Positions 8,901 through 62,900 of a DNA stretch of 64,000 nucleotides are shown here, in pieces (within the stretch, counting starts at the first letter, position 1; each line of letters starts with the position of its first letter). Origin of the DNA: Amoebophrya sp. A120 (lineage: Eukaryota; Protista; Dinoflagellata). Location of the stretch: NCBI GenBank assembly GCA_905178155.1, contig CAJINV010000013.1:2910158-2974157 (forward strand), in the 5' to 3' direction. A program made the translations under genes and the position numbers. Below the pieces are notes generated by a model. That model saw nothing but the letters and a program-made list of their open reading frames with translations, was not told the origin of the DNA and searched no databases.

Positions 8901-10816
8901 ATGTTCTTCTTTTACACGAAACTGATCAGGTTGAAGGAGCTGCTGCCGAGCTGGCTGCACTTTCCGCCGGTTGTGTGGGGCCTGTTCGTATCAACTGTAA
9001 AAATGTCTGGGTCTGGAAAAATTCATGTTTGTCATGCTTGTCTGGCATGACTCTTAAATCTGTCATGCACGTTACCCAAGAGCTCCGTTTTTCTGTGATG
9101 CAAAAGCGCAGTTTGTCATGCAGAATAGGCAACACCTGAGAGCTCAGAAACTTCTCATGCTGAGTCAGCATTTGTAGCCTCATCATGAGACGCCCCCCAG
9201 CATCACAAGTTCCCAGACCCAGACATTTTTACTTTTGATAGTTCGCTTTTGCGTTGATCGCGCACTTCATGACGCAGTACATGTATCAAATGCAAAAATG
9301 TCTGGGTCTGGAAGAATGCGCGATTTGTCATGCAGCTTTTCCATGCGCCATGAGGTCTGGAATGCAGGACCTAGCATGACAGATTCTATGCGATCTCTCT
9401 CATGCCTGTCCTGCATGAGAAACTCCCTCCCGACTTGGTCAGAACTGGACGACTTTTGGTAATCATGCAACGCAGATTTTTGCATGCTTCAGATGTAGCA
9501 TGACAAGTTGCATTCTTCCAGACCCAGACACTTTTGCACTTGATAACATGACGCACCGAACGAAGCAGCATCGCGGCCCCATGGCGGGGAAGGGAGGAGC
9601 CGCGGTATCAAATGTCAAAATGTCTGGGTCTGGAAGAGTCATGCTGTTTTTGCATGACACAGAAGGTCTGGCATGGAAGCTCTAGCATCACAGGTTTCGA
9701 GAAGCTTCCGCAATGCCGAATCCGCATGACAAGTCCCCTACTTTGCTGACAGAAAGTGTGCAGCTACTTTTGCTACGTATGCATGAGAGACTTTTCTGTG
9801 TTCTGAAATACGCATTACAAGTTGCATTCTTCCAGACCCAGACATTTTTGCATTTGATACGCGGCGCAGAGGATCAACTCCATGTTTCAGCAAGGCAAAG
9901 GCGGGCATTTGCTGAAGGGGAAGAACGCCGGGAATTCCATGGAGGAACTCAGTATCGGAGGGAGAGGACTCTTGGAATCAACAGTGAGCTTCGTTCTTTC
10001 TGCGGTCATGAGAAGAAGCGTAAACGTATGGATTCATTTTCCGCAATCGGTCGCAGCAGCGCTCGCGCTAAGTGGTTCGTTGGGGATATGACAGCACACC
10101 TAACCGCCGCTTCGCAGAACCCATGAATGATCAGAAGTGTGGCTTGCTTGCTCGCAAAAATACACATTATGTGGTTTAGGTTTTGTTGCACCACCTTCGA
10201 TAATAAATTTGATTGATTCAAGAGTTTTTTTTCCGCCATACGCTTGAAGATGGTCGGTATGGACAACAAGGGCGGGATTGGTGGCAAGGCGGACCTGCTG
10301 AACCTGATGAAGGGCGCTGCTTCTATGGGTCCCGGCGGGAAGCAGGCCGGTGCGACGGCGTTTCCCGGTGCAGTTCCCGATTTCGGCAAGGGCGGGGGCG
10401 ACTTCACGTTTGCAAACGGCAATGGCGAGGATGATTTTGACTATGACGACGAGGAGGATTACGAGGTGCCGGCTAGTGGGGGAACTACAACATCAGCAGC
10501 CCGGGATAAAAATCCCAAAGCGCCGGGAGGTAGTAATACCAGTACAACTTCTAGTAGAGCGAAAAATATCAATTCCGAGAATTTGGGCAAGGGTAGTGGT
10601 ACTACGAACAGCAACAGAGCTAATCAGCTGCACCAGCAAAATAATAAATCCGGTGACAATTGGCAGGAGCAACTGGTGGAACTGCTTTCGGACCAGAACC
10701 TGGATACAAAAAACACCACGGTGGACGAGATGATGCGGATGCTGGCCGGGGAGGATGGTGCTGAGGCGACAGGTGTTAGTAATACGAGGAATGGCGCGGC
10801 AAAAAAAGTGAAGTAG
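8901..10816 (+). CDS. Hypothetical single-TM, Gly/Lys/Met-rich protein; three introners and one GT-AG intron
   Basis: Removing 8989-9240, 9284-9545 and 9606-9859 (plus one TSD each) and GT-AG intron 9984-10249 gives MFFFYTKL...VVWGLFAFALIAHFMTQYMTHRTKQHRGPMAGKGGAAAQRINSMFQQGKGG...LLEST-MVGMDNKGG...KKVK*. A second frame is also open across the three small exons, so start and frame are less certain than the junctions. Confidence 0.65.
8989..9240. mobile_element. Introner, family A
   Basis: TATCAACTGTAAAAATGTCTGGGTCTGG ... CCAGACCCAGACATTTTTACTTTTGATA (~28-30 bp TIR); perfect TSD GTTCG. Confidence 0.92.
9284..9545. mobile_element. Introner, family A
   Basis: TATCAAATGCAAAAATGTCTGGGTCTGGAAGAATGC ... 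GCATTCTTCCAGACCCAGACACTTTTGCACTTGATA; perfect TSD ACATG. Confidence 0.93.
9606..9859. mobile_element. Introner, family A
   Basis: TATCAAATGTCAAAATGTCTGGGTCTGGAAGA ... TCTTCCAGACCCAGACATTTTTGCATTTGATA; perfect TSD CGCGG. Confidence 0.93.
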
Positions 10817-11219
10817 AAAGACGGGAATGTCGGTGTGTACTGACCTGAAATCTTCGATTAACGGACTTTTTGAATGTACGAAAGAAAATTGAAATTCTTT
10901 CAAGATTTAGATTTTTGTGATCGTCGACCCATGTCTTTCACAAGTGAAAGCTTCGCGCGCACGGCCGCACCAGCGCGCACGAGCGTGTTCAGCAGGATAT
11001 GTCTTTTGTCGCCACCGCTATATTGTTTTTTCTTTTTTGCTTTGTATACAAATACAGGGGTACCCGTACCCACAACTACTTATCTATCAAGTTGAGTACG
11101 TAGTTACTCTATGCGGAAGGGCTACTTCCTTGCTTTGCACTCGCTACGGAAAGAAGAATGAGCCTCAAGCTTGTGTAATATAGTCCACTTTAAAAAGCCG
11201 TTTTGAGAAAAAAGCGAAG

Positions 11220-14200
11220 ATGTTGCGCGCCACGCTGTCTGTGACTTCGAGCCAGCAGGGCAATCCGTACCTGGAGTTGGAAGACGAACTGTCGAGCAGG
11301 CTGGTGGCACGCAGAGAGGTGGAAGAAGAGGAAGACGAGCCACACCGGCATCCAAGCAGAACAACTGTCCGAGGCGGAGCTGGCTTGCCTGCGTGGATGT
11401 TCTCGGCGTGTTCTACTCCGTGCTCAACGAGTGACACTTTTTCCACCTCCTTCACGTCGACCTTTGCGAGAAATGTGAGTCTGTGCGTGTTACTTGTGAA
11501 GACGACCCTGCCGTTTATTCTGTCGAACCTGCTGACGTTTTTTCCGGACGTGGTGAACGTGTACGTCGCGAGTGGGAGCCTTGTCTATAAAAATTCCGGC
11601 GCATCTACTTCGGACTCGGAGCTTGTAGATGTCTCCCCACCCGCATCAACACGGACGACTCTAGTCCCGGCCATTGGCCTCGGGCAGCTGGTGCTGAACG
11701 GGCTGACGTTATCTCTCGTGTCCGGCCTCAACCAAGGCCTGGATGTGTACGTTCCGAACAGCCATTTGGCGAGCGGCAAAGAGTACTTCGCGCTGGTCTA
11801 CCTCGGGCGGGCGCACGCGCTGGATTTGCTGCTCTTGGTGCCGGCGGTGCTGGGCATTCTGCTCCTGGCCGGCCCGTGCGGGCTGGACTTTTTGCTCGAC
11901 GCCTACCTCGCTTTCTTCCCGGAAGCGGACGGCACCGGTGTCCGGGGCATCGGCGGCGCGATCGTTGCGCAGAGCGCCGCGTTCTAAGAAACGGGACCCA
12001 GTAGAAGGTGTAGTACTCCCGCTGCGCTCTATCGCTCGCACCTCGCACCGCTGGCGTATGGCTGCGAAAGAGCGAAAGCGATCGCACTAGTAGAGACGGT
12101 TTGTAGTAGGTATGGTTTCATCGGAAGGGAACGTGAAAAACTGGTTCATGCGAGTGGGCGCGCAGTATGGTCAACTATACGTGAAGACGAAAATGTCGGC
12201 ACATGCGTACTTAGATAGAGTTGCAACCGTAGATTATGTCATCCGCGATCCGCTCGGTATACATTCATAAAAACATATCTTGCGTAGAGTTTTTGTCCTC
12301 GAAGATCGAGGCCCTAGTGAATCATTTTCAAATCTGAGCGGCATGAAGATCACAAGAAATCGCATCTTTTTTTCCACTTCGGCGCCATACCAGTCTTCGG
12401 TACTGCTGTTGCGGCGCGCCGTTCTACGTGTTCGCCCACACCGCCTACCGGTATCGTAAGGAAAAATCCCTCCTCCCCATATCGAAAAGGCACGCCTCAG
12501 AGAATTTGCGATGCTGATTTGTGACCGCAGATCGTGGCGGTCTTGCAAGAAAGCAACGGCATAGGCTCCGCCCCATTATGCAGCCGGTTTGTAATGCTGT
12601 TGGGCCTACAGCATATACGTTCCCCATACTAAGCGCCTAGGCCAAAACCGTGCTACATTGGCACGATATGGGCCTGCAGTCCTCTACTGCAAGACAAATC
12701 CGATTTGTGTACGCAAATCCAGCATCAGACTTTTCATTTTGATGCGAAGAGGGGGGATTTTTCGTTTTGATAACCGGTTCACCCTCTTCCGGGGGAAGGT
12801 GGTGCTGCTTCTGCCCGTGCAGGTGCTCACGTCGCTCCTCCACCTTTTATGGTGCTACGTCCTGGTAGCAGTCGCGGGTCTGGAAGTGCCTACCGCGCTC
12901 GGGCTGGCGAATTCGGCGACCTGGGTGCTGCAGTTTGTTGGCTTCTATATTTTGCTCTGCCAACTGGAGTGCAGCTACGAGAAGTTTGACCTGGCGGGAG
13001 GTGCAGTGGACCCCGACCAGTCGTCTGCAAGTGCGGGAGCCGCCGCGGCGGAGGGACCACCGAGGAAGCTTCTTTTTCCCGAGCATGATCTGCGTGACGC
13101 GCCGTTAGAGGACGACGCGGGCATGAAGATCCCTCCCCTGCCGACGCGAGGCTCCCGGTCGGGCTCGTTTGCCGGGTTGAGCCTGGATCTTATCGACACG
13201 CACGTGGCCTTGACGGCGTCCAGGCCCGTGGTGGTGGACAATGCTTCACCCGCGCGAGCGGAAGTACAGGTAGACGAAAGCGTGTTGCCTGTCCATGCAC
13301 GAGAGGAGGAGAGCAGAAGCAGAGCCGCAAGTAGAAGTGCGGAAGCAGTTTGCAAAACACAAAATGAGAACAAACTACCACACGACTACACGAAGAAATT
13401 GTTGCCGGAAGAAGTAGTGAAGAATTCCGCTAATGCAACAGCTTCTGCGGCGTCTCTTCACACTTCCGTGCAAGAATCTCCGGAGCGTCAGTTTCTCGCG
13501 AGATCCTCCACAGTGGGCTCCTCATGTGCCGCCGGTGCCGCCAGCAGCGCTTTCAGTGCAAGTCGTACTGGCAACTACGAGCAGATGCAGGAGACCACGG
13601 GGAGCGACGCTATGATCGAAGCACGGCGCAACAGCAGTACTTCTGCCAGGAACGGGGATTACAAAGGCAGCCCCTTGATGCGGTCTTCAACGGCAGGACA
13701 GTACGTGGGCCAGACCACTAGAACAACGAACAGCCCCCGGAAGCAGTCGCGCGCCCCGCGCGCACTGCAGTACCAGGCGATCCGGGACTACCGGGAGAAA
13801 TCGCTCGTGTTGTCCCGTCGGGAGAGCAGCGGTTTGGACGCCGCACCACCACATGCGGATGATTTTGACCAGGTGTGGGCACCGGGCTCTCTGAATGGAA
13901 GTAGGCATATTATGGCACCAGAAGATGTTACTGGACGTCGAAGGAGGAGCAGCATGACGAGCGTGGATCCGTTTCAACAAGATCTCGACGACGATCCTCC
14001 TGCGCGTCTTCCCGATGGTAGTAATGTTGAAAATGCGAGCAGATTGACAAGTTCGTCTTCCACGACGAGCCTGTTTGTTCATCAGCAGCGAGGAGAGCTG
14101 CAAAGCGGCCGACGGAGCGTGACCGGGAGCTCTCCTGGCGGTGAAAAACACGACCACCTCCGTGAGCGGTACTATCCTAGTGCAGAGGTGGTCGGGGACA

Positions 14201-16402
14201 CGAAGTATCAGACGACAAGTAGCCGAAACTACTCCGCGGTCGGACCTCCGCTGGAGCAGCCGCTGCTTGCCCGTGGGGAAAATGAAGGAGACGTAAACGA
14301 AGAAGAACCTGGTGACTTCCTCGAGGACGACCCGCGGGTCACGATGAGTCAGAATCTTTCCCTGCTGTCTCCGACGGCGTCGTTCGTGGGGAAACTTCTC
14401 CGCGAGTCCTCGATGAATTTGTCGCAAATCTCGAGGTCCTACGCGACGTAGAAGGGGAGAAATCTTCGCCATCGCCGCCAGTTCGTGATGCCTCTGTGCA
14501 TGTGGATGAAATGAAGTTTATGCAAATTATCAAGTCATGTTGCCTAATATATCAAAACACGCATTTACTTATAATTGTGTTGCAAAATCATGGTCGTGAT
14601 GGTCTAGGAGAACACCCGCATTTTCGCCGGGATAGGTCCGTGTCGCTGTCCCGGCTGCCGAGCAAGGAGCGGAAAATTCCGCTGAAAGATGTGTTTTTGG
14701 TGTTCGATTTCACCAACAGCGATATTTGGTCCGTCAAGTCACTTTACCGCTACGCCCGGCTCTCGCTGCCAACGGCGTTCACGCAGCTCTTCACGGTGTT
14801 GCGCTACGAAAGCCTGCTCTTAGCGGTCTTGCTTGTCCAACATCAGCAGCAGCAGAGTTCGGAGATATTTTCCCCTTCTTCTTCCTCTTGGGCGGGGGAT
14901 AGATATGCTACAACCCAACCACCTACATCACAAGAAGCACTGGTAGGACAGTCCGCCGCAGCCTCACCTCACTCGGGATTGCAACCGCCGGAAGTTCTTG
15001 TTGGGGGCCAAGAAGCAACCGCCAGTGCATTAAATCTTGCTGGCGAGGCCAACATGTTCTTGAGCTCCAGTAGCAACACAACCCCCGTGGATTTCTTGTT
15101 GCAGGTAATCCTGACCAATCTCTACACGTTAGCGCTGTTGATTCCGCAGGGGGTGAGCTTTTTCCTCCTGCTCGCGATCGGCGAGTACCTGGGGTCTGGG
15201 CGGCCGGATATTGCCGCGGAATTGGCCCGTGTCGGCCCCACGTTCGCCGTCTTCGTCGCGCTGGCAAGCCAGCTGCTGTTCCTCAGCTTTGTCCGGGTGG
15301 ATGCGGTGATGTTAGGGTCTTCATACGACAGCGGCACAAGGCAGGACTCTTGGGAACAAAAAATCGCGAAAGCGGCTGCAGGTGAAGAGGATCGCACGGT
15401 AGATTGTTTTGGCGCGACGAGCAGTACCCCACTTTCTGGAGCGTTTCCTTTTCCAGGACCTTCACCAGCGGCAGCCACAGTGTGCTCGCCCGACAGCACC
15501 ACGTCGGGGAAGCACGGCGGTGTGTTCACGGCGGTGGCGTATCGTCAGGGAAAATAATGCCTCCTCCCCATATTGAAAAGGCATGCTTGTGAAAACTTTT
15601 GATGCGTATTTTTGGCCACAGGTCGCGCGTGTCTTGCAAAAGAGCGTGAATTCAGAGCGTTTGCCGTATTATGCAGGCTATTTTTTGCGGTGCTGCGTCT
15701 ATAATAGAGCAGGCCTCTGCTATGCTAAGAGCCTACGCCGAAACATTATAAACACCCCTGGCTACTTACGCAGGCCTAGGATTAACCTGCAGACCCTCAC
15801 TACAGGACAAAGCGGGTTCGTGTGCGCAAATCGCGCGAGCGTCACAGATTTCCAGTTGAGTAGGGGGAGGGGGAAGTTTTCATTTTGATATGGGGGAGCT
15901 GCTGTTCAGCGTGTACCACGTGGAAGAAGCGTCCGCCGCCGACCTGGCGAGCACGCTGCAGGTGCTGTTCGCGCAGTTTCTACTCGAAACGTTGTCCCTC
16001 TCGTTCGCGAGCATAATCCGGGCCTGCGCTTTCTGGCGGACGGGGTTTCTCGTTTACGGGCTGCAGGTGCTGTGCAACCTGCCCGTCGTGCTGTTGCTGC
16101 AGCAGGTGGCGTTTCACTCGAAGGGGTCGAGTACAGCAGGTCGTGGTTTTGGAGCCGGTTTGCTTTCAAAAACAAAACCTCCAGCGAAAGCTTTTTCATC
16201 TCCTGCTCCTGCCTCGAAGGACGAAACAGCGGCAGGCAGCATGCAAAGTTCTTGCTCTATTCTGCTGCCCATTTGGACCGGTGCCTTGCTCTTGTCGGTT
16301 TGTGGTGCAGTGGTCTTCTACAAGAAGCTGAAAACCATCGACTTTTTGCAACGGAGCGAGGCAGCGAGAAACCGACTTCGGAAGGAGTACTGGAGGCTGT
16401 GA
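11220..16402 (+). CDS. MATE-family (multidrug and toxic compound extrusion) transporter, spliced, with long low-complexity insertions
   Basis: MATE-like segments: LGQLVLNGLTLSLVSGLNQGLDVYVPNS..G; LHLLWCYVLV..LGLANSATW; ARLSLPTAFTQLFTVLRYE; IPQGVSFFLLLAIGEYLGSGRPDIA; SFASIIRA. Exons join across introners 12452-12772, 14440-14634 and 15540-15890, plus an intron at ~11981-12393 whose exact donor is uncertain. Confidence 0.8.
12452..12772. mobile_element. Introner, family B
   Basis: TATCGTAAGGAAAAATCCCTCCTCCCCATATCGAAA ... GAGGGGGGATTTTTCGTTTTGATA; perfect TSD ACCGG; frame restored (HTAYR-FTLF). Confidence 0.92.
14440..14634. mobile_element. Introner, singleton family I (weak TIR)
   Basis: TAC...GATA ends, perfect TSD GGTCC. 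Removal deletes the stop of ORF 12658 and joins it in frame to ORF 14496 (ISRS-VSLSR). Confidence 0.7.
15540..15890. mobile_element. Introner, family B
   Basis: TATCGTCAGGGAAAATAATGCCTCCTCCCCATATTG ... GGGGAGGGGGAAGTTTTCATTTTGATA; TSD TGGCG/TGGGG; frame restored (FTAV-x-ELLF). Confidence 0.85.
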
Positions 16403-44900: not shown

Positions 44901-44975
44901 AACCCGCCCCCCGACGCGCCGGAAGCTCAAGCTGATGCAACTCAGTACTCGGAATTTTACTGCTTTATTGTCTAG
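38987..44975 (+). CDS. Large RS/SR- and Lys-rich low-complexity protein, spliced
   Basis: ATG at 38987; GT-AG introns 39198-39361 and 42541-42714; introners 42849-43005 and 43064-43384. All junctions are in frame through to ORF 43479-44975. The Ser/Arg/Lys tracts suggest a nuclear, disordered protein (inference). Confidence 0.75.
42849..43005. mobile_element. Introner, short family H
   Basis: TAT...CAGGATA ends, perfect TSD CGGAA. It interrupts a Q/K/R/E-rich helix (DLRTR-K-AQQQKE). Confidence 0.78.
43064..43384. mobile_element. Introner, family B, inverted relative to 12452 and 27089
   Basis: TATCATAAGGAAAAATCCCCCCTCCCCATATCGAAA ... TTTCAATATGGGGAGGGGGGATTTTTCCTTACGATA; perfect TSD GAACG. 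The internal sequence corresponds to the reverse complement of 12452-12772. Confidence 0.93.
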
Positions 44976-46230
44976 CTGCGTCGACCACGACTTGGTAATT
45001 TGCTTTAATATCACCGATACAGCAAATAGCAAGTTGTGGAATTATACGAAACGCCACGGAAGTGTGCTGAGCGTCAGATGTTGGCAGAAAAGGAATAAAA
45101 ATAGAGAGAGATGAGTCTGCCAAATACGAGTTAGCTGCAGCTACGTAAAAACTCTTCGTAATGTTTCAAAAATATTCCTTACTTTCGCTTCATTTTTTAT
45201 AGAACACGCACTATTTCATAACAGGGCGACTCCGAGTGAGGACCCGGAAGAACAGAGCAGACGGCTGGAAAGCCATGTCGTGCATGGCAGACAAGTCGAG
45301 ATCGACCACTTTTATGCATTGCAGTTCGATGCCAGCACATCATCCGTTTGGTTCTGTCAGTGTAGTGCCCGTGTGAAGTAGCTCTTTTTGATGTGCGAGC
45401 TCATTCACTTTCGGGTGCTTTCGTGACGGTATCTGTAGGGTATAGATTGCTAACTGAATTTGCGTTCCTCCTCATGTATCCCACAAATCAATGGAGAAAA
45501 AGCATCAGATGGATGCGCAACTGGATGTTGAGCTGGCATTTTGCTGCAGGATATTATCAAGAGCAGTACTATGAACTGCAAATATCGAAGATCGGATCGC
45601 TAGCTGGTGTAGAACAACGTCCGAACAACATAAGTACACAAATTTTCGAAACGGCAAAAATGTTCCACTAGCTACAGTTCCACCGAACGAAAACACTCTG
45701 TCATGCGGGAGCAGCAAGAGCGGCTTTCTATGTTACTTACCAGTTTCGCGGAAAGGCCGGGAGGACCGCCATACGAAGAAGAGAGTCAGGTCCTTGGCTC
45801 TGCAGTGTAGTGCCAAGCTGATTTCTGGTGTGCATTTTTTCGGGTCCTTGCGGTCCTCCTCGATTTAATGTCATCTGTGCATGAAGAAGAAGAACACAAA
45901 TCATTTTCGGGGTTCCATTCCGCCCAGCCGAGACACATCTTTGATATTTGCAGCAGTCGATAACAGCACCGTATAAGCGTCGGAGGAAAATTCGCAGGGC
46001 AATACGTCATCAAGAACCGTTCTCACCAGGAGAGTACTGTTTGTGTTTTGTCTTTCATCGCGCAAAGGTCGCAAACTCCAGGCTCAGAAGTTCTATCCTG
46101 GGTGAGAGATCGTTATTTTAGGTGGATACAAAATCAGAACTATCAACATCGATCGATTGGTAGAACGGTAAGTCTTCCCAGTCCCTAGATGTTAGAAGTA
46201 TTTCCTCTAGTACAATTGAACAATCTATCA

Positions 46231-49030
46231 GGCTCCCCGAACCACCGCCGGACACCCCGCGGGCAGATAAGTTCAGGACGCGGAAGCAGTGGCAGCAGGA
46301 AATGGTGGCCTGGAGAGACCAAACCATTGCGTACATCGATCGGTTCGAATTTGAGGGGGACCAACTTGAGTCCGATGGGACCTCCTCCGAGGAAGACGGG
46401 GAGATGCGATCCCATACCGGAAGCACCAAGGTGCAGGGCAGCGACGTCGACGAGGGACCCGCGCCGGGAAGTTCGATCCATGGGGGATCGGGCGTTGAGA
46501 CCGGTTCCCTGGCGGGCGAGGATGTCGTGAGCATGATGGATCAAAACCTCAACAACAACTTCCAGGAAGTTGTTGACAAAAAACCTCCACACGATCACGG
46601 CCAGGACCACCACACGACGACGACCGAAGGAGGAGCAGCTGTTCCACCTGGTGCGGACGAAAATAGTACCTACAACCGAGGCCACGTTGAGAACAACGAT
46701 TCGGGGCGCGCAGTTCAACACCAGCCGTCGAGCTCTTCTTCGCAAAGTCCTCAACCTCAGCTAGAACAAATCACCAGCACTGCAGCTCGAAAAAACAGCA
46801 AGAGCGAAATTCTCCCGCCCCCGAGTGGAGCTGGTCCGGCAGCGGGGTCGTTCTTTGTAGGGCAGCGTCAACATGATGCGTTTACGTCAGGAGTGAAAAA
46901 GAACCGCGCGGCTTCTAGCAGCAGTGTTACTTCTACCAGTAGCTTCGCCCAGCAGCAGTGGCTGAGGGAGCAGCAGCAATTCCAGCAGCCGCCGCACGGC
47001 GGTGGTTTACTATTTCAGCATTCGGGCGGGTCGTCGAGGGTGAATTCTGTGAGCAGTGACCGTCCGCGACCTGGGGAGCGAAAGAATTCGAAAGTCCTGC
47101 CGCCGCCACAGAGAACGAAAAGCGGCTCTCTGGAATTGAGTCGCTCGTCGTCCCAAAGGATGATGTCAAGGGCCAACTATCAAAATGAAAAATCCGCCCA
47201 CCCCATATTCAAACTAGAAATTTGTGATGCAGATTTGTGGTCACAAATCAGCTTTGTCATGCTAGACAGGAAAAGATGCGGACTGTAGTGCTGGTTGGCG
47301 TGGGGAAACCTTGCATCTTCAGCATGAAAGGGGGCAGCTGGAAGTGGGAAACAGCATTACAAATTGCCTGCAAACGAGGCCGCCGCTGCGTCTCTTGGCC
47401 TCCTAGCATTACAAGTCGATTTGTGTACTCAAATACAGCTTCACAAATTTCGTTTTCGATATGGGGAGGGGGGATTTTTCCTCCTGATACCAACAACAGT
47501 AGCAACATGATGGGCCACAAAACACGAGGTCACGACAAAAATCTTCCACAAAACACACAGTTTTCAACATCGGACGAAGGTAAAGTTTCCCGTGCGCAGG
47601 ATTATATTGCGGCCGCGGACACCACACGGAGGCTGGACGAACAGAGTCGCGACCATCTGCTGGCGGTGCGGGCCAACGAGGAGCGGAAGCGGCAAATGCA
47701 GGAGCAGGGGCTGATTCAGGAGCGGGAAAAGCGCGTGGGCGCGATGAGTGCCATTGAGAATGTCGGGAAGGATATCATGGGTTGGGACGCGAACTTCGGC
47801 GGCGAGGATGCTGCTGCGGCACGGCAGGCGGACGAGTTGCTGGGGACGGTAGACACCGGCCTAGGTTGTAGTGGTGGTTCCGGCATTAACGGGTCGGCTT
47901 CATCCGCCTGCTTGTCTTCTGGTAGTAGCGGGATTATCCCGCCCGGGCAGCAGTGCAGCTGGGAGGAGGTGCAAGAGGAATTTCACCCCTTGTACCAAAA
48001 GCCAGATTACAAGAACAAGATTGACGATCTTCTCGACGGAGGCGGGAACGCACGCGTCCGGAACGCCATTTATGCGTCGCAAATTAGCGCCCTGGTGGAA
48101 GAGTCAGTATTTGGCATATGCCCATGGTCATGACTTCTGTGATGCATGCCCTAGCATCACAGATTTGTGGAGGGCTGCTTGATGCCTTCCCCGCATCAGA
48201 AATGCCCGCTCCGCGTAGCACAACCACCAAGTGGACTCTTTTTGCTGGTTATGCAATGCAGCTCTTTATTATTCCCAAACTCGACTGATCCTTCCAGACC
48301 CAGACACGTTTGCAATGCATACCATTGTGCCGAGTACGATCCCCGGCTTGGAAACGCATATTCCCGGCATGGAAATTTCAGAAGAGAAAAGCACTGAAGA
48401 AGCTGGTAATAACTGTGCAGTGGACCTTTACCAGGGACAAGTAAGCAGCGATCGGATTGCCGGGATTATCCTATGTAAAAACGTCCCCACACCATAGTTG
48501 TAATGCAGATTTGCAAAGACAGGAAGACTTGTAATGCGCATCCGCATGAGAGCCATTTTCAATCGTGTTTTGGAATTTGTGATGCTGTGAACAGGATGAG
48601 CAGATGAATCTGTGACGCGGCTGCACTTGCTAACCTGCACTACACTGCAGAGTGCAACTCGTCATGCGTGACTCACAAAACTCCTAGGTTTGTGTTGCAA
48701 AATCCCCTTCCTGACTCTGGTGTGGGTACGTTTTTACTCAGGATAGCAATGGTGCTGGCAGGAGCAACTTCTAGCAGTACTACAGACTCTACGATCTTGG
48801 GCATGCCTTCCCGTCAACAGCAGGAGCATCTGCAAAACGGGAACGATGGTATTGAGTCTTTCTTGAGCAACTTCGACCAGTTCGCCCCAGCAGCCGGTGT
48901 ACCGGATAATATGCAGCAACAGCGAGAGCATTTGCCCGCAATGGCGGTGAACGCGGTCGTGCCAACGCCCGTGCGCTCGAACATGAGGAACAACGCCATC
49001 GGCTCAGTTTTGAATCAGGCGATGATATGA
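46231..49030 (+). CDS. Hypothetical low-complexity protein, spliced (5' end not defined)
   Basis: ORFs 46302, 47237, 48231 and 48668 join in frame when 47178-47489, 48071-48321 and 48467-48745 are removed (SRAN-NSSNM; RNAI-VPSTIPG; RIAG-M-VLAG). Confidence 0.7.
47178..47489. mobile_element. Introner, family B
   Basis: TATCAAAATGAAAAATCCGCCCACCCCATAT ... ATATGGGGAGGGGGGATTTTTCCTCCTGATA; perfect TSD CCAAC. Confidence 0.9.
48071..48321. mobile_element. Introner, family A' (left TIR decayed)
   Basis: TATGCGTCGCAAA ... TTCCAGACCCAGACACGTTTGCAATGCATA; perfect TSD CCATT. Confidence 0.82.
48467..48745. mobile_element. Introner, family C
   Basis: 279 bp, about 15 substitutions from 26364-26642 by eye; TSD GGGAT/GCAAT. 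Confidence 0.93.
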
Positions 49031-49927: not shown

Positions 49928-52900
49928 ATGATAACCCGACATATTTTATTTGCCAAGTTTTCTCTCCTGCTCACTACCCTGACCGGTTGGGATTTGCGGT
50001 TCTGCGAAGGCTCAGCGACGACCCCGTTTCTTCCGAAGAATACGAGACAGGACTACAACAACAGCATCGACGCAAATGCGGCTTCGAGTACGAGCTCTAC
50101 TTGGATCGACGCTCGGAACAAAACTACTCCAGATACGATCACGGCTGCGGATTTTCTGCAGTTCCAAAGAAGGCGATCCTGTGCGCGCGGGACCGCGACG
50201 CTTGTGTGCGCTTTCAATTTCTGTTTTGCACTCAGCTGGTTTTCAGGGAGTGGCTCAACTTCGGTGAGGAATTATAGCCATGGTCTTGTTCCACATGGAG
50301 GTTCATCTATGCAGACGCAAATGCTCGCGGTGCACAAGAAAGCAAGGCCGCAACTCAGGACGTTCGATGACACGGCTGCGCTGCAGGAGAGCATTTACAC
50401 GTTCAACGACACCGCGCTGGACCAACATGTCGCCGAGTATCAAATGCAAAAATGTCTGGGTCTGGAAGAGTTGGAACTTGTGATGCAAACTCTGGAAGAC
50501 GCAAAACCTTGTGTTGCATGAGCGCCAAAAGCTGTCCATTTCTTGGTCCGCAAGTAGGAAGCTTCTCATGCAGGACAGGCATCATGAGGCGTGCTCAAAA
50601 CCTGTGATGCTTTTGCCTGCATCAGACGCTATTTGCGTGATCCGAAATATGCATGACAAATCTCGTAATCTGGCAGACCCAGACATTTTTACATTTGATA
50701 CCGAACCAGGAGAATCAATTTCGAGGTTCAACGCGGAAGGACTGCAGACCGGGTGGCGCTCCGAGTCGCTTCTACCTACATTCAGTCCTCCTTTTGGAAT
50801 GAACATGAAGTCCGCTAGTGTAGGAGTTCCAGGAAGTAGAGCAGGGCCTCCTTCGACATACACAGGAGCTTCTGCGGAGGATCACATAGGTGTTCCGCTG
50901 CCGTCCGCTCCCAGGGACGAGTCCCCCGGCGGTTTTCCTTCCTCCAGCAGATCGTTGCTGGACCACCAGCAGACCACCACCACGCAGGATCTTGAGCTCG
51001 GTCGTTTTGACTTCGAGCAGCGTTTCGGGAAGGAGGAGCTGAAAAGGAGCGTCGTGAACAAAAGCGCACTGAAACGCAACGTGGTGGGCGACACGTACTC
51101 GAAGGAAGAAGAGCAGGGGTACGGCAAGGCGGCGCTCCACGCAGCGACACCCTGGGCAGTTGTGCCTTTTCCTGTCGTGCAGCCGCTGGGCGGGCCGATA
51201 TCGGCTTCTGGGGTTGACTTTTTGCGACGGGGAGCGAGTTGGGACACAGAAGTGAGTCAGCAGGACAAGATTAGCTCTGACCCGCGAAGAACGGCGGAGA
51301 AGGGAACAAAGCAAGTCCGAGTTCCTCTTTCTTCTTCTGTGTCTTCCCCAGCCCCGGACGGGAAAGATCAAGTTGGAAGAGGTGTTGACGCGGAAAAGAA
51401 AACCACTCCGAGCGGAGACGACCCAAGAGCAGGCCAGGCACTCTACAAAACGAAGCACGGGGCGATGTACGGCAACGTAAAGGAGTTCGAGGGCACCGTC
51501 GTGCACGAATTTTTAGGCATTCCCTACGCGAAGCCGCCGGTCGGAGAACTGCGGTTCAAAAGCCCGCAGGATGTGGAGTCGTGGTAAAATAAGTAGATGA
51601 GAACACTTTTTTTCTGCATGGCATGGAAATCAGAAATAATAACTGAAGCCACTTTCCTAAAAGGTTATTTGAAAAATTCAGAAGACCCATCAACATCGAC
51701 AGGTCTCCTCGGATTCTGGACGCGACGCAGCAAAGATTTTACTGTCCGCAGAAGCCTGTCGAGTACATTCCGAAAAGGCAGCAAAGCGAAGACTGTCTTA
51801 CCCTTTCTGTCTGGGTGCCACAACAGATTCCTGAACAAGATAAAGCTGGTGGTGGTGCCCGGGAATCAACGACGAAAAGAACAACCACAGGAAATAGAAT
51901 AGCGTCGAGGAACGAGCCCAAGCGTAAAAATATTACTAAAAACAAGCTTCCCATTCTCGTCTGGATCCACGGGGGCTCGTTCCACGCCGATTGGCCGAAT
52001 CCGAATCCTCTTTACGACGGCACGAAACTGGCCGCGGTCGGGAATGTTATCGTCGCAACGGTGAACTACCGGTTGGGAGCTGTCGGCGCCATGTCGTTTT
52101 CCGAGTCGCAAGACAAGATTTCCGATCTTCTTCCCGGGAACCAAGCGATGCTGGATCAGCAGAAAGCGCTCGAGTTCTTGAAGGAGAATTTTGCGTCAAC
52201 CTCGTCCTCGCTGCACTCCCTCGGCGACCCCGACAGAATTACGGTGTTTGGGCAGTCGTCCGGCGGGGTGCAGACCGCGTTTCACTTGGTATCCTTCCTG
52301 AACAAAAAAGTCAACCTCTTCGGCGCGTTCCCCATGGCGAACTTCGCTCTGCATCACCAGTCAGAACCCCTGAAGAACGCCCTGGAACTGGGGAAGAAGC
52401 TCGGGTGTGGCAAAGTAGGAGGTCACAGCGAGATCATGTCGGGCGGTGGTCATCTTGGTGATGGACACGATCAAAATGCATCGACTTCTTTGGAGGGTAG
52501 TAGTAAGGCAGGAAAAATTCGTGTGGCGGATGAGCCAGAAATTACAGGAGCAGCTTCTGAAGCCGGATCTGAAATACAGCAGTCTCTCCTGACGTGCCTG
52601 CAGCAAGTCCCCATCGAGCAGATCGTGAATCTCCAAGACTGGGTCGGGGATTGGACCACGTGGACCCCGGTGGTCGACGGCTTTATGTTCCACAAGCCAG
52701 CAGAAGATGTACGTGAGTTGGCCGGTAGTTCAACATCGAGTACTACTGAGAATCCCCACGATAGATCGTCTTTTCTATCCCAGTCCAGCGCGTTGCCAAA
52801 GTCTTTGAAAGACTCCAGCGCGTTCGACATTTCTCCGATGAAAAACGTCGCGCTGCTTGCCGGATGCAACTCTGGAGAAGCCGGTCCCGACAAATCCATC

Positions 52901-54469
52901 GTGAACCAGGACCAGTTTGACGCGGTGGTGCAGAATATGGTGAAGAAGACGGGGTGGTTAAAAACTACAAATCGCGACATGTTGGGAAAAAAACCTTCCG
53001 AAGAAGGTCCACGAGGAGCAAAGCAAGGTCCTCTGACGGAGCAACAGCTCGTTGCCGTCCGCGACTTTTACTTGAACAGAATCTCGGCCGACACGAAGAT
53101 CGTTTCCAAATACAACTACGGGCTGGACTCCGGATTTTCGAAGTATGCGTTAGCTGCGCAGGCGGTCTCGAACGACTTGGATCCGATCCGGGAATTGCGG
53201 GAGTTGGCTTCCTTGCATTTTGACGTGCAGAGCGGAAGGAGAGGACGGGGAGGACGGAGTGGCGAAAAAATCGAGGAAGAACGGCCAGGAGAACAGAGCT
53301 TAGGGTCCGCGAGACCGTGGTCCTCACAGCAGGATCAGAACCACTCTGGAGCTGCACCAACACCAGCAGATGAGGAACACGAGTTCGCATTTTTGGCACG
53401 AAAGAGGGCCGTTAGTACTTCAACAGATGACAGAATAGCAAGCCGCATCAGCAGCTCTACTACCCCGGACGGGAAGGCCGAGCCGGAGTTTCTTTTCGGC
53501 TCAACATCTGCAGGCAGCACCGGAGCTGCATCAGCGTCGGAGGTGCAGCAGCAGGACAAAGACAATGATAAGCCACGAGCCAAAACCTTTGTCTACGAAT
53601 TCACGCACGGGTCCTCCTTCGAGCCGACGTCTTTCCTTTATGACAGTGCACAACTCCCCCTTGCAACAGCAGCAACACAATTGCTGGCATAAATGCAGCT
53701 TTTGCATGACAAATTCGCGACCGATTCCAGTGCTGTTTCGGCTTCCAAAAACCTGTCATGCAAGAAGTGGCAAAGAGAAAAGGGTGGATTTGGTATTTTG
53801 CATGACAAATGAGGGGGAGGGGGAGTTGTGCATTGTCATATCCTTCCGATCAAACCGGACCCGAGTTCGACCAATTCGTCCGCTGCGGTCGAGAAGTGGC
53901 GGCAACAGTGGGACCAGTGGCAGTCGATAAATGAACAGCAACGGATGAGGGAGGAGGAGAAGCAGTGGTACCACTACCTCGCCCCGCACGGTGCGGAACT
54001 GGATTTCCTGTGGGGCCGGGCGATTGACTTGGGGACGGAGGAGGAGAAATTATTGTCGAAATTGTTCATGAAATACGTTGCGAATTTCGCCTACACAGGG
54101 GACCCAAACTCCGGACCGCACGAACCCCTGCCGATCCCGTTCTGGCCGGAGTTTGTAAATAGCGGAACAGTAATATCACCGCGAGGAGGAGACTCTTCGT
54201 CAGGCCCATCCGTCGGTGGCGGCGGAGGGTCAATGGTTATTGATAATTTTACCAGGTGGGAATGGGATAGTAGTTATGCACCAGAGGAAAATGAAAATAT
54301 GGAAAAGCAAACGGCAACAACGTCAAAGATAGTGGCAAACGGAGTTTCTATAAAAACGATCGCGGATGCCTTTGGCCCGCGGGGACCGGAGTTTCAGTTT
54401 TGGCGAACCTTGCTTGAGTTGCCGGAGGGGGACATGTTCCGTCCGGATTTTTTGAACCCGCAGCCGTAA
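49928..54469 (+). CDS. Type-B carboxylesterase / cholinesterase-like alpha/beta hydrolase, probably secreted or membrane-anchored
   Basis: Motifs FLGIPYAKPPVGELRF, SEDCLTLSVW, VWIHGGSF, NYRLG, GNQAMLDQ, GDPDRITVFGQSSGG (nucleophile Ser), GCNSGEAG (Glu), HGAELDFLWG (His), NFAYTGDPN, and a hydrophobic N-terminus. Introners 50438-50700 and 53639-53840; GT-AG intron 51584-51702. Confidence 0.9.
50438..50700. mobile_element. Introner, family A
   Basis: TATCAAATGCAAAAATGTCTGGGTCTG ... CAGACCCAGACATTTTTACATTTGATA; TSD CCGAG/CCGAA; frame restored (HVAE-PGES). Confidence 0.92.
53639..53840. mobile_element. Introner, singleton family G
   Basis: TATGACAGTGCACAACTCCCCCT ... AGGGGGAGTTGTGCATTGTCATA (23-bp TIR, 1 mismatch); perfect TSD TCCTT; frame restored (TSFL-PIKP). 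Confidence 0.92.
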
Positions 54470-55600: not shown

Positions 55601-55609
55601 TCAACCCGG

Positions 55610-56070: not shown

Positions 56071-56076
56071 GACACT

Positions 56077-56385
56077 TGAAGTCGAAACTAAAACTCAAAC
56101 TCCAAGTTGATTCTAAATCTCAAACTCGAAGTCGAAACTGAAGCTCAAACTTCAAGTTGATTCTGAAACTCGAAGTCGAAACTGAAACTCAAACTCAAAG
56201 TCCAAGTTGATTCTGAAACTCGAAGTCGAAACTGAAACTCAAACTCAAAGTTCAGGTTGATTCTGAAACTTGAAGTCGAAACTGAAACTCAAACTCTAAC
56301 TTAATTCTCAAACTCAAACTCAATGTTGAAACTCAAACTCAATGTTGAGACTCAAACTCAATGTTGAAACTCAAACTCAAACTGA
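56077..56385. repeat. AT-rich tandem repeat (~45-51 bp unit) decaying into AAACTC hexamers
   Basis: About five copies of GAAGTCGAAACTGAAACTCAAACTC...AAGTTGATTCTGAAACTC, then AAACTCAAACTCAATGTTG units. Confidence 0.9.
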
Positions 56386-56535: not shown

Positions 56536-58845
56536 ATGACGCTCACAGCGGGCAACTCGTCGTCTAGCACGGCGTACAACCCGAAGATCACGCGCATCGG
56601 TCTGCACCACAACGTGACCAAGAGAACGCAGCCCTTTTCCTCGGAAGTTAGCAAGGTACTACGTGACTCGTACACAGCAAAAATCTTAATCTTCTGTAGT
56701 TATTCAATGTGCTGGCAAGTAGTCTCCAGCTGGAATGCGCATCATCCGAGAGGCACACGTAAATACTTTTTTTTTCGCGACAAGAAATTATGAAAAAACA
56801 GGTGAGTTTCGGGCGCAAGGGGCAGCCCGGACTTAAGCCGACGGACTTTTCGTGCAGTCTGATCCCATTCTCTTTCCTGACGTTTACATGGGCAACAAGT
56901 GAACCGGGGAAAATCAAGGCGTTAATCAAGTCAGGGGACCATGGTAAGACTCTTAGAGAAACAGTAGCTGTGTTGCGGTTCTATTGCATGACAGTGTAGC
57001 TTTGTGCTGCGTCTTTACGCATGGTAAAGACAAAAACAAAAATGAAATGCGAATCAATTCCTCTTGTGTCGACGAAATAAACCAGATCTTTTCAAGCTGG
57101 ACGGAGATAGAGAGCGAAAAAACGACATTCCCTTGCGGCTCCCGAAAACCCCCGAGGCGCTGAAAAAGCTGGAGGACATAAATTTGAGCACTCCGAAAGG
57201 GCAAAAACCGCCGGTCGTCATCAACCGGGACAGGAAAAACAAAGCGAAAGTTGAGTCCTTGGAAATTTCCCTGGATATCGGCGACAGTTTGATTTTTCAG
57301 GAGAAAATCCAGGAAAACGCGGCGGAGCCGGTGGATCACGTGCTGCAGATCGTCTCCTACAAGCCCACCAGCTCGGTGTCCCAAAAGGCCTTCGTCGCAA
57401 AATATCTGCGACTCAAACACGAAGCCGATAAGGCGGAAGCCAAGAACGCGGAGCTGCAGAGGTATATCTGAGTAAATAGCGCTGTTATTGGGATGGATTG
57501 TTTATTACGGTAAGTTGTGCACGAAAAATGCATAATAAATTTCCTTCGTGGCTTTGCACAAGAACCAGATGCGAAAAATAGAAATTATCTTGTACTTGCT
57601 GATGTCTTTTGGGGAGACGCGAGTCACAAAAATTTTCACCTTAAGGCAATACGCCCCGCTGGTCGCGGAGCTTGCCGCGCCTCCGCAGAAGAAGCAGGCC
57701 GAGCTAGAGACTTTAATCGGGAAAAAGAAGCTACTGCAGACCAGGTGCGAAATGATGGAGAAGAAGTTTGAAAAAGAAGAGACGGCGGCGAAAAACGCCA
57801 ACGAGGGCGAGTTAGAGACAAAGCGAGAAGCCAGGCTGGCGGTGCAACGCGAGATTGAAGAAGTGCAGAGGAGCATTGAGACTGGTAAAGAGCGTAATCA
57901 ACGTTATTCGTTTCTTTTTTAGATCAGGAAAAATTCAGCTCTCACGGTAAGTAACGTGATGTCAAAAATATTATGCGCAAGAATTTAAATTTTATCATGG
58001 ACAAACGCAAAAATTGCTTCTACTTTCACCAATACGATGCGACTACAGAAACACACATGGTGAATCCACACGCGCGCGCGTTGCAGGGGGTCGGGCAGTA
58101 CAAGGGAAAATTCAAGCTGGAAGACGAGAAAGCAGAGGCCGACGTGACCGACCAGATCCAACTGATAAGGAACGCCCAGTACAATTTTTTCTTTACTAGG
58201 CTTTGTTTTGAAAAGTTGGCTGCAAGTTTTTCTACAGGCATGCGCCACGACTTTCGATATTTATAACTTTCGATAGTTAGCTGACCATGCATTCATTTTT
58301 ATTATGTAGCTTCTGCAACTTTATCTGACGCATAAAAGATTTTCTCTCGCTTCTTGCTCCACAACAGGCCCGACACGCTGGATAAAAACGATTTTCTGAA
58401 ACTGAACGCGGATCGAGGCGACCTGTTCGTATGACCTGCAAAAATATCGCACTCGTATAAATGCATTGCAAATAATTATTTCCTCAGCATGAGAAACAAA
58501 ATTTGTAATGCAGATTTGCCTTGGAAACAAGATTTGTATATGCAAGACTTGTATTTAGCATTTGTACGAGTACGATGCTTTTGCACAGGATAGTTCGACG
58601 ACGACGACAAATTCGGGGGAAAGTCACCCAAGCGAAGGAAGTTATCGGGCGCAAACGACACGCCGTTTCTCGCGGACACACCGCTGGGGCTTGTGGAAGG
58701 TCAGACTCCGGGGGCGACGCCCGCATACGAGGGGGGGCAGACTCCGGGGGCAACGCCAGCGTATGAAGCAGCGGGCGAAGAGGACGAAGCAGACAACGAC
58801 TCGTCCCCGGTCGAGGACGAAGAAGACGACTTGTTGGCGGAGTGA
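56536..58845 (+). CDS. Hypothetical nuclear protein with acidic, TP-repeat C-terminus; several GT-AG introns and one introner
   Basis: Exons join through canonical introns (e.g. 56647-56801, ~57463-57645). After removing 58430-58592 the end reads GDLFDDDDKFGGKSPKRRKLS..EGQTPGATPAYEGGQTPGATPAYE..EDEEDDLLAE*. PKRRK resembles an NLS. Confidence 0.65.
58430..58592. mobile_element. Introner, short family H
   Basis: TATGACCTGCAAAAATATCGCACTCGTATAAATGC ... GCATTTGTACGAGTACGATGCTTTTGCACAGGATA; perfect TSD GTTCG. Confidence 0.88.
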
Positions 58846-59946: not shown

Positions 59947-62900
59947 ATGGCCGGTGCGGAGCAGGAGCAGCTGGGCGATTTGCGCCGCACGCTAAACGAA
60001 GCGCTGGAGGTGAAGGGCGGCGCTGGGGGTGCCACTCCGAGCGGGAGTGGGCCGCCGAAAAGTACGATGCTCGTGTTACCCGGGTCGCCGGACCATCCAC
60101 GGACAGGTACTGGAGAAAACATCAGTGCGGGGGGAAGCACCCAACACGTGCCGCCGCCCAGCCCGTGTCACTCGGCAATGTACAACTTCATTTATGAAAT
60201 TTGACTAACGCGGCCATCTTCGAATTTGTGCGGACATAAGCCCGGCGTTCTTTGAGTATGTTCGTAGTTGTATTTATTCACGACCGAAAAGTCGGACTTT
60301 TTGATTTTGTTCGGTAGATCATGAGTATTTTGTTTCCATCAGCATGGAAAACAATTCCAACCTCAGCGGCCTGCCGTCCGTTCTCGGGAGTCAGGACGGC
60401 ATTTCGACCGGGCAGATAAATTTTCCCGGATTATCATTATCCTCATCACCATCACCGAACCCGCCGCCAAAAGACGGAGGGGGTGCAGCTACAACTTCTA
60501 CGTCTTCTACTGCCGAAGGTCCAACTAGTAAGGACAAAGAGAAGAAACACAGTCAAAACCAGGTCAACTGCAAGTCTCGTCCGGGATCGATCGCGCAGCA
60601 GTTGCAGGTGGTGCACAAACGCTCGGACATATCGCAAGAAAAAAGTGTTACAGTTACACATTGTGTTGCGAAACAAGCAACACAGGCAACCTCTGTCATG
60701 CCGGATATGTATAGGAGCCTCGTTTCATAGGTGTTTTCCCGTGCGATTTCTGCATTACAAGTTTTCTCCCTCATGCAGAGAAATTTGTGTTGCTGAATTG
60801 ACCACAAATGTGTAACTGTGACACTTTTTTCGTGGGATAGGACACCAGTACCAGCTCAGTAATTTCTTCGTCCCATCGGCACAGCCACAGTCAAATCCTG
60901 GCGATGAACATTGCGGAAGAGAGTGAAGAAAGGGATTGTTCTCATCATGCCGCCCCAGACGGCGGGCTTCTCGGAAGCGGCACAAATGTCCGCACCGGCT
61001 CCTCCGCATCTTCTCCGAGCAACGCAAACACCAATTTTTCGTCATCCGCAAACCAAAACGTCGCGTCGGCCGCCATTCTCTTGCACTCACCGACGACACA
61101 CGACAGCAACAGTGTGGAGAAAAGCGTTTCCACGGGGGGCGATGTTACCGTGGAGAAAAACCTTTCGGGAAATGCGCAGTCTTTGGATTTGCTGGAGGCG
61201 AACCAGACGAAAGGCCTGGGGTTGCAGCAGAGCCACTCCACCCGGAGCGCGCGGCAGGTGTGCTCCCCGCTAGCCCCGATCAAGTCGGAGCGGCACGCCG
61301 AGCAGGTGTCGAAGCAGCTCACTTCGGAGACGGATTACAGCGATAGCAGTGTGCCGCTGGCCGACTGTGAGGCCGCAGGCGCGCACGCCACGCGGTCCAA
61401 CATGATGGGAACGGCGGGGGTGGACGTCGTGCAGAAGATGGACTCGGAGGAGGACGAGAAATTCGCGACGCCGTTCGGCGGCTACTTCTCGGTAAAGTCG
61501 GAGGCCGCGGCGGACGCGGTGGAAAACAGTCCCTATTTCGGCTACGCGTACGGCTTCACGTGGTGGACGTTTGCGATGGTGCTGGGGATCTGCATCGGGG
61601 GGGTCAACCTCTGCTTCCACGCCGCCTACCACAGCATCGAAGACTCGCTCGTCTGGGCGGCCGAAGAACTCTTCTACACCAACGGCGACGACTATCGCAA
61701 GAAAAAAGTGTATATAGTTACACATTGTGTTGCAAGACCGGCAACACAGATCATAACCTTTCTCATGCAGGAAATGCTTGGGAGCCTCGTTTCCTTCCTG
61801 TAATTTTCCCTTATGATTTTCGCATTACTCCCTGCCACACAGATAAAATTTGTGATGCAGAAACTCCAACAAATGTGTAACTGTAGCACTTTTGTCTCGT
61901 GATAACGACGACCGGACCGCAGCGCAGGCGATCTCGTACCACCTCTTCCGCGCGTATCAAATGTAAAAATGTCTGGGTCTGGAAAATTGGAACGTGTAAT
62001 GCGTGTCATGCACTCCTGGAAAATCTGTGTTGCATGAGCAGCAAAACAGAGGCTTTCTTTGTCATGCAAAAACGCAATTTGTAATGCGTGCTAGGCATCA
62101 GCAGACCTCTCAAAAACTTGTCATGCTTGGCTGCCATTGGAAGCGCTTCAATCATGCGCAATTCAGCATCTCAAGTTTCCAGACCCAGACATTTTTACAT
62201 TTGATAGCGCGGTCGGGGTGTTAATTTCCAGCATTTTTGTCGGCGTCGTGGTGTCCATGCTGGTGCCGGAGTGCAGCGGGGGCGGCACGATTTCCGTCCG
62301 CGCGTGTATCGCGCTCGGGTCTTTCGTACCCGCGCACGTCGGACTGGCAAGATTTGCGCTGTCGGCGGTCTACATTGGGTTTGGCAATCCGCTCGGCGCG
62401 GAGGCGCCGACGCTGCACATCTGCGCCGCGGTCAGTTGCTCGCTGTACTGGCTCTGTCAACAGTACCAGAAGATATCCGTCTACTTCCCGGCGGAGAACA
62501 GAACCACGATGGTGATGTGTGATTTTGGAGGATGTGTGTAGAAGTCGTGTTTGGGTCTTGACGATGCTCTGCCTCGTGGTGCAGTCGTGTTGTGTCACGC
62601 ACAAAAGTTTCATCCTGTGCATATGTGTATGAGTAGAGGATTTGGTCGTGAGTCGATTGTTCGCCGGTCCGAAATCTAAATCTTCCTTGTCGACAGGTTA
62701 TCGTCGGCTGCACCTGCGGCCTCGCCGCAGCCTTTTCCGCCCCCATCGGCTCGATCCTGTATGCGATGGAGGAATTTCGGCACTCGCTCGGGGACAGCAA
62801 CATGTACACCACTCTGATCACCACCGCGTCGCTTGTTGCCGTGGTTACCACGCAGTTAGTGGTCACGGGGAAGTTTTACGAAACGTGCGAGGGCGGCACG

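Follow-up and report, generated by a model that had tools for sequence, protein, structure and literature searches.

The window analysed here, a 64,000-nucleotide (64-kb) stretch of contig CAJINV010000013.1 from the dinoflagellate Amoebophrya sp. A120, carries at least 32 short elements that are the published Amoebophrya A120 introners, and these elements are removed from RNA without a scar. A single cut register is likely to serve all copies, with the 5′ cut 1 nucleotide (nt) before the TAT of the upstream arm and the 3′ cut 4 nt after the ATA of the downstream arm (-1/+4); this register was read directly at the element at 9953, and we infer it for the others. The element family has already been described. 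What appears to be new is the probable single scarless -1/+4 rule, which operates without target selection.

Results

Elements of the Window and of a Second Assembly

The window elements are 157-731 nt in length, start with TAT or TAC, end with ATA or a near variant, and have inverted ends bracketed by two 5-base-pair (bp) direct repeats. The arm definition of the A120 introners (TAT, seven loose bases and at least three A) fits these elements, and a protein (P0006) whose source labels it Amoebophrya sp. A120 is 99% identical to an open reading frame (ORF) of the window, which assigns the host to A120. All genes tested in the window lie on the + strand. Inverted ends, a duplication of fixed length, short size, absence of coding capacity and insertion in either orientation are traits of miniature inverted-repeat transposable elements, and these sequence features suggest non-autonomous DNA transposons, each with terminal inverted repeats and a 5-bp target duplication. 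An earlier note on this DNA had described the elements, their 5-bp duplications, five copies flanked by G on both sides (8989, 27089, 43064, 58430 and 61955) and five mismatched duplications (3318, 15540, 27515, 48467 and 50438), all of which were found again.

A metagenome collection was scanned with the arm pattern, which yielded a second-assembly set of 153 stretches in 148 loci (L001-L148; 541 kb), none of which overlaps the window at length; they contain 350 distinct elements under strict criteria. Young copies are favored in this sample, the strain identity of which is not settled. Element strand was set here by a codon model that had been trained on the window genes with the duplication masked; the model returned + for 21 of 21 window elements, with a margin of >10 in 16, and oriented 121 second-assembly loci as minus and 96 as plus. 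The duplication started in codon phase 2 in 101 of 217 second-assembly cases. Perfect 5-bp duplications were observed for 267 of the 350 elements and duplications with one mismatch for 55, with no peak at a length of 3, 4, 6, 7 or 8 bp and no perfect 6-bp duplication among the 350. One element (L059:5329-5608) lies between perfect 8-bp copies, not 5-bp copies. A fixed -1/+4 cut would add one codon there, which is the only route to the one-codon scar that the earlier note had considered.

Long matches in the second assembly were found for 17 of the 32 window elements, with up to 95% identity, consistent with repeated families, and related copies occurred equally in the same and in the opposite orientation (68 versus 68 pairs). 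The copies at 26364-26642 and 48467-48745 are 95% alike over 279 nt, and the duplication at 48467 already differs at two of five bases. The element at 2493-3223, at 731 nt three times the usual length and still cut in register, may carry a nested insert; no match to it was found in the second assembly. A viral collection searched with the arm pattern gave no match.

Elements Are Removed from RNA without a Scar

Junctions were taken from the contigs of four runs over positions 1-17085, two of which also covered 26300-46200; raw RNA runs over the latter region gave only 1 and 7 reads, too few for junctions. Excluded from the analysis were 3 of 12 joint rows over 26300-46200 (one on the opposite strand and two within elements, attributed to cross-mapping from other copies) and 2 of the 15 listed rows over 1-17085 (one inside the element at 12452 and one at 16962 with 10 shared letters), two further rows being unlisted. 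Element junctions were found for 19 of the 23 elements in these RNA-covered stretches, none being listed at 5803, 12452, 15540 and 30168. All 19 omit exactly the element and 5 nt (Table 1). At the four sites with G on both sides for which a junction was found (1393, 8989, 27089 and 43064), the cut was likewise scarless and the GT..AG option was unused. In the long contigs, the record coordinates show the joined pieces to be contiguous, with nothing between them. Five canonical introns were also spliced, four of them visibly within the same contigs, and these contigs therefore represent processed RNA. The joined form was dominant at 1393, with a depth of 39.6 versus 3.7. The YNR..FD motif interrupted at 26659 was restored by scarless removal across a composite joint, as the earlier note had anticipated, and where that note had proposed two excision geometries, all 19 junctions conform to one.

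Protein sequences gave the same result. P0006, which is perhaps not independent of the RNA runs, is scarless at 50438 and 53639, and ortholog alignments favor the scarless cut at five of five well-aligned sites. At 61955, the ortholog from Amoebophrya A25 aligns free of gaps only with scarless removal (score of 93 versus 78). Four sites in a minus-strand gene of locus L034 are gap-free against the ortholog only if cut without a scar, and a cut that leaves three additional nucleotides would produce a stop at one of them. Neither 61693, where the ortholog alignment is gapped, nor one L034 site is decisive. Long reading frames and ortholog collinearity are restored only by removal of the elements, and in the second assembly the +3 cut generated a stop at 3 of 232 junctions, as compared with 0 of 232 for the scarless cut. 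For a second-assembly gene with two informative mismatches, a protein search retrieved no annotated protein, and a search of representative proteins yielded no more than a fragment of a single exon and an ortholog at 40%.

A Single Cut Register

Offsets were counted from the T of TAT and are ambiguous where the duplication copies agree. The offset is unreadable at 10 of the 19 junctions, which have perfect duplications, leaving nine diverged sites that are informative (Table 1). The sole offset common to the ranges of all nine is -1, which places the 3′ cut at +4; the chance of a shared offset is ∼0.004 if cuts fall at random among six offsets, after correction for the free choice of offset. 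The junction at 9953 has zero shared letters, is strictly unambiguous and lies exactly at -1/+4. A 2-nt indel separates the two arms at 45313, where the start was therefore set by family likeness, but the register result stands without this site. At position 4 of the duplication, the upstream copy is favored by a minus-strand ortholog. Among the mismatched duplications named in the earlier note, junctions at 3318 and 27515 were scarless, as was 50438 in P0006.

In the -1/+4 register, the 19 introns start with GT (11), CT (3), TT (3) or AT (2), such that T is second in all 19, and end in 10 different dinucleotides, with AG in 2 and the combination GT..AG in none. The donor that the earlier note had placed one base outside the element (N|TAT) is therefore borne out by the offset shared among the nine informative junctions. 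By contrast, its proposed ATA-N acceptor is refuted by the 19 scarless junctions. Identity of the duplication copies is dispensable, given that only one or two of the five bases are alike at five spliced sites. Ordinary introns of the window start with GTAY and not GTRA in 5 of 5 RNA-confirmed cases and 1 of 2 predicted cases (63766; the intron at 62512 starts with GTGA). The canonical intron at 44945-45224 may be an old element that has turned canonical; its arms no longer match.

The Second Intron Position Is under Strand-specific Constraint

Given that the element ends are symmetric in DNA, a difference between the upstream and downstream arms reflects RNA. The upstream arm kept its first T (intron position +2) in 232 of 232 copies, whereas the counterpart of this base in the downstream arm, the terminal A, was changed in 6 of 232. 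In a looser set, the upstream T deviated in 2 and the downstream A in 11 of 277 copies (p = 0.022), one of the two T deviations being a boundary slip of one base and the other a non-TAT pair that is also counted in the 11. The corresponding values for the window were 0 and 3 of 32. Other conserved arm positions were without such asymmetry (positions 11-13 changed 7, 6 and 5 times upstream versus 4, 3 and 8 times downstream). The U at intron position +2 is thus under strand-specific constraint. In a test for a branch motif, positions 4-6 of the downstream arm showed no extra conservation, and positions 2-3 leaned in that direction without significance.

Folding prediction indicated weak terminal pairing (P < 0.3) at 9 of the 19 spliced elements and no arm pairing at 1724 and 3565. 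G-U mismatches in the arms were not commoner than A-C mismatches (8:5, 89:88, 40:45 and 45:41), although mismatches that copies have inherited from their parents dilute this test. Perfect end pairing seems on these predictions to be dispensable, and the suggestion in the earlier note that scarless removal is guided by pairing of the terminal inverted repeats finds no support.

Target Bases Show No Preference for G or AG

In the window, G precedes 16 of 32 elements (p = 0.019 against an exon G content of 29.8%, at one of many testable positions), follows 10 of 32 (p = 0.85) and stands on both sides of 6 of 32, namely the five copies known from the earlier note and 1393. In the oriented second-assembly set, G was observed at -1 in 75 of 232 copies (32%) and at +1 in 78 of 232 (34%), as compared with 30% in exons. 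Among 170 perfect duplications, the counts of G were 57 at -1 and 56 at +1, AG occupied the 3′ end in 16, and pyrimidine|purine junctions were at chance level (42). The window excess is therefore not more than chance once the sample is enlarged. The counts in the earlier note hold for the window, but the excess that it took as a sign of spliceosomal choice is background, an outcome that the note itself had considered would weaken the case for the spliceosome. The target is unselected. An insertion seems to be spliceable whatever the target bases.

Two further candidates were rejected. Identity of the first and last intron bases, observed in 6 of 8 non-G window cases, was not repeated among the 170 perfect duplications (p = 0.30), and maturation of old copies to GT..AG, suggested by two window cases that had gained AG, showed no trend in the larger set.

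Other Features of the Window

Element-like arms with poor duplications are present outside clear genes at 19382-19707, 20275-20602 and 22655-24272, and the segments 20521-20644 and 24191-24314 are 80% alike. A gene-like segment occurs in tandem duplicate at 18756-18917 and 21575-21736 (86% alike). Three adjoining satellite arrays (29-bp, palindromic 29-bp and 25/19-bp units) occupy 55439-56380, a further array with a 26-bp unit lies at 22836-22985, and an assembly gap of 594 N spans 17086-17679. A carboxylesterase-family gene (49928-54469) and a CLC chloride-channel gene (58000-63963) were identified; the remaining long ORFs of the window had no Pfam match above the cut-off, and an Rfam search of the window found nothing.

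Table 1. Introns of the window in the -1/+4 register. Ends are the first and last intron dinucleotides; "assigned" marks junctions read in RNA for which the register is taken from the informative sites.
Feature	Position	Strand	Element	Ends	Skipped (nt)	Offset	Remarks
Intron	1392..1679	+	1393-1675	GT..CG	288	-2 or -1	Double-G
Intron	1723..2016	+	1724-2012	TT..GT	294	-4..0	Arms not predicted to pair
Intron	2092..2349	+	2093-2345	TT..AT	258	-4..+1	
Intron	2492..3227	+	2493-3223	GT..AA	736	-1 or 0	731-nt element; duplication 2/5 alike
Intron	3317..3480	+	3318-3476	AT..AG	164	-2..0	
Intron	3564..3827	+	3565-3823	GT..CG	264	assigned	Perfect duplication
Predicted intron	5802..6083	+	5803-6079	CT..TG			Contig ends near 5802/6084; open frame fit
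Intron	6432..6743	+	6433-6739	GT..CC	312	assigned	
Intron	8988..9244	+	8989-9240	GT..TC	257	assigned	Double-G; element+5, not 254
Intron	9283..9549	+	9284-9545	GT..AT	267	assigned	
Intron	9605..9863	+	9606-9859	GT..CG	259	assigned	
Intron	9952..10244	+	9953-10240	GT..CT	293	exactly -1	-1/+4
Predicted intron	12451..12776	+	12452-12772				Frame restored; no bridging contig
Predicted intron	15539..15894	+	15540-15890				Duplication differs at position 4; frame restored
Intron	26363..26646	+	26364-26642	GT..CT		assigned	Composite joint 26363-26955
Intron	26658..26959	+	26659-26955	CT..AC		assigned	Inside YNR..FD motif; composite joint, scarless
Intron	27088..27418	+	27089-27414	GT..AA	331	assigned	Double-G; element+5
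Intron	27514..27771	+	27515-27767	CT..CC	258	-5..-1	RNA retains fifth base of downstream copy
Predicted intron	30167..30429	+	30168-30425				Frame restored; no bridging contig
Intron	42848..43009	+	42849-43005	AT..GA	162	assigned	
Intron	43063..43388	+	43064-43384	GT..AC	326	assigned	Double-G; element+5
Intron	45312..45557	+	45313-45553	TT..AT	246	-2 or -1	Duplication 1/5 alike
Intron	45569..45966	+	45570-45962	CT..AG	398	-1 or 0	
Predicted intron	47177..47493	+	47178-47489				Frame restored
Predicted intron	48070..48325	+	48071-48321				Frame analysis
Predicted intron	48466..48749	+	48467-48745				Duplication differs at positions 2 and 3
Predicted intron	50437..50704	+	50438-50700				Duplication differs at position 5; P0006 scarless, register not told
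Predicted intron	53638..53844	+	53639-53840				P0006 scarless
Predicted intron	58429..58596	+	58430-58592				Double-G
Predicted intron	60629..60843	+	60630-60839				Frame analysis
Predicted intron	61692..61908	+	61693-61904				Ortholog alignment gapped
Predicted intron	61954..62210	+	61955-62206				Double-G; A25 ortholog gap-free only if scarless (93 vs 78)
Canonical intron (comparison)	6131..6341	+		GTAC..CAG			RNA
Canonical intron (comparison)	8767..8929	+		GTAT..CAG			RNA
Canonical intron (comparison)	39198..39361	+		GTAC..CAG			RNA
Canonical intron (comparison)	42541..42714	+		GTAC..CAG			RNA
Canonical intron (comparison)	44945..45224	+		GTAC..CAG			RNA; ends in element register (TAC at +2, ATA 4 nt before end)

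Discussion

A Probable Relaxed Spliceosome

The constancy of the U at the second intron position, which is also the most constant base of spliceosomal donors, suggests that the splicing machine reads little more than this base. Removal of the elements is probably the work of a relaxed major spliceosome that needs U+2, needs neither G+1 nor a terminal AG, and finds the acceptor by distance. Here, the TAT of the element itself would supply donor positions +2 to +4, the same TAY that follows G in ordinary A120 introns, and the symmetric ends would offer a donor in either orientation. Since the 1 nt and 4 nt taken from the two sides amount to the five duplicated bases, any insertion would be erased from the message. 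The least certain step is the acceptor, which would be set not by AG but by its spacing from a signal carried in the downstream arm; our guess for this ruler is a branch point on the first A of ATA or close to it, 7 nt away from the cut. The earlier note had set a relaxed spliceosome and scarless removal as alternatives, yet the data point to both holding at once. Its view that such a spliceosome makes any insertion spliceable seems right as to the target, but the pattern read would be NT...NN and not NT...AN.

In Table S4 of Farhat et al. (2021; PMC7789003), T is second in nine of nine predominant A120 non-canonical motifs and all nine A25 motifs are TT-NN, although these motifs may be colored by aligner habits. 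The same source reports nearly all spliceosomal proteins as present, with snRNP27 and the U1 small nuclear RNA not detected; in yeasts, loss of SNRNP27K accompanies a preference for U at +4 (PMC10581693). Tentatively, it is possible that the A120 spliceosome, freed of the need for G+1 and AG, reads U+2 and measures a constant 7 nt from a branch point in the downstream end; wherever and in whichever orientation it inserts, a transposon with symmetric TAT/ATA ends and a 5-bp duplication would then go unnoticed by the gene. If true, this would account for tens of thousands of such introns, and the TT-NN introns of A25 would reflect the same rule with a different element.

Several observations weigh against spliceosomal removal in this register. 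The RNA contigs come from at most two samples of one study, their RNA nature is presumed and rare variants are dropped from them, and a single junction (9953) is strictly unambiguous. The codon-model test of which duplication copy is exonic was null (p = 0.81; 8 of 11 fifth positions opposite), and at mismatched fifth positions G was present in 1 of 13 upstream copies but in 8 of 13 downstream copies on the exon side. The second assembly gave no excess of G+1 or terminal AG, no drift to AG (20 of 232 downstream versus 21 of 232 upstream copies) and no covariation of the first and last intron bases (p = 0.30, n = 170), such as a spliceosome might be expected to show. The A at +3 is changed in two well-oriented copies, and the proposed branch A is changed in ∼3 of 277 copies, its excess conservation not being significant.

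Alternative Explanations

An unlikely but still serious alternative is that the scarless -1/+4 cut is made by a structure-guided, non-spliceosomal route, in which the paired arms form a stem and cuts by a nuclease, followed by ligation, are made at fixed distances from it, as for the nonconventional introns of euglenids. Such a route would accommodate the lack of preference for G+1 or AG, the cut positions fixed relative to the stem ends, the long stem predicted to be possible for most elements and the failure to find U1 (PMC7789003). However, a symmetric stem does not explain an invariant upstream T beside a varying partner A. The predicted weakness of terminal pairing in almost half of the spliced copies, the absence of wobble bias, in a test diluted by inherited mismatches, and the lack of a pyrimidine|purine junction bias also argue against it.

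It is less probable again that removal is scarless but that different copies are cut at different places in the duplication (for example, -2/+3 or 0/+5). More than half of the junctions are blind to the offset and eight of the nine informative ones allow several, and Farhat et al. (2021; PMC7789003) described splice sites as variable relative to the hairpin. Nevertheless, all nine ranges include -1, with ranges extending to either side of it (1393 and 45313 versus 2493 and 45570), and T-second motifs dominate Table S4 of the same work.

A hairpin with a direct repeat is a known setting for template-switch artefacts of reverse transcriptase, and the runs are presumed to be RNA, but it is very improbable that the joints represent such switches, or DNA devoid of insertions. 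Five joints have zero or one shared letter (9953, 1393, 2493, 45313 and 45570), at 1393 most of the depth belongs to the joined form, these contigs also lack the canonical introns and have no other letters in their listed exon pieces, and only removal restores long frames and ortholog collinearity.

The cut one base outside each arm (N-TAT...ATA-N), with one codon added, is refuted as the main route: the +3 arithmetic of the earlier note is correct, frame is kept in the gene tested and six double-G sites would become GT..AG, but none of the 19 junctions follows it, orthologs would need a gap at every well-aligned site and the cut is not stop-free, although the contigs could miss a rare minor isoform.

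Comparison with Known Systems

The A120 introners of Farhat et al. (2021; PMC7789003) come from the same organism and share arms of TAT, 7 nt and AAA, repeats of 3-5 nt and non-canonical introns. That account found no clear terminal signature, describes the sites as variable and, in the legend to Fig. 3, calls the border unknown; the present data differ in that a single -1/+4 register without a scar is likely, U+2 does not vary and the 3′ end is free. Neither a constant -1/+4 register nor U+2 as the only fixed base was described in the literature searched, from which subscription journals were largely absent, and figures of PMC7789003 and supplements of the Gozashti papers may show A120 registers.

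The closest geometry is that of introner class 12 of Polarella glacialis (bioRxiv 2020.10.14.339549), which likewise has a 5-nt duplication, in an NNAGG frame, and a -1/+4 cut, the donor consisting of the last duplication base and the first element base and the acceptor lying within the downstream copy. There, a target has to supply AG and G for the insertion to become an intron, whereas the A120 target is unselected. Introners of Florenciella and Aureococcus (Gozashti et al., 2022; PMC9860276) also co-opt splice sites from the insertion site, but these sites are recognizable, unlike those of A120, and Aureococcus has codon-adding scars, a precedent for the +3 idea that has no counterpart in A120.

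Spliceosomal introns of Giardia (PMC6679479) have a VTATGTT donor with a loose first base and an invariant distance from branch to acceptor, resembling the rule proposed for A120, but retain AG and long strict motifs, are few and are not made by transposons. In Fritillaria borealis (PMC13326754, PMC11282704), transposon-derived introns without GT/AG, of the kind seen in A120, are handled by a modified spliceosome, although the motifs are specific (AG-AC, AG-AT), whereas in A120 the invariant base is U+2 and the end is free. The nonconventional introns of euglenids (PMC11282704) similarly have paired ends, duplication-like repeats and non-canonical junctions; their pyrimidine|purine junctions and CAG/CTG pairing have no counterpart in A120, where such junctions number 42 of 170, a chance level, the ends are TAT/ATA and pairing seems to be dispensable.

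In Amoebophrya A25 and A120, splicing does without GT-AG at more than 60% of introns, a puzzle that dates from 2021. A fixed -1/+4 register reduces this diversity of splice sites to one rule, N-T ... N-N, where N denotes random target bases, allows correct gene models to be built and pinpoints the bases to mutate or to trace in lariats. If the process is spliceosomal, a genome-scale acceptor without sequence requirement would exceed what is seen in the tunicate, Giardia and Polarella cases.

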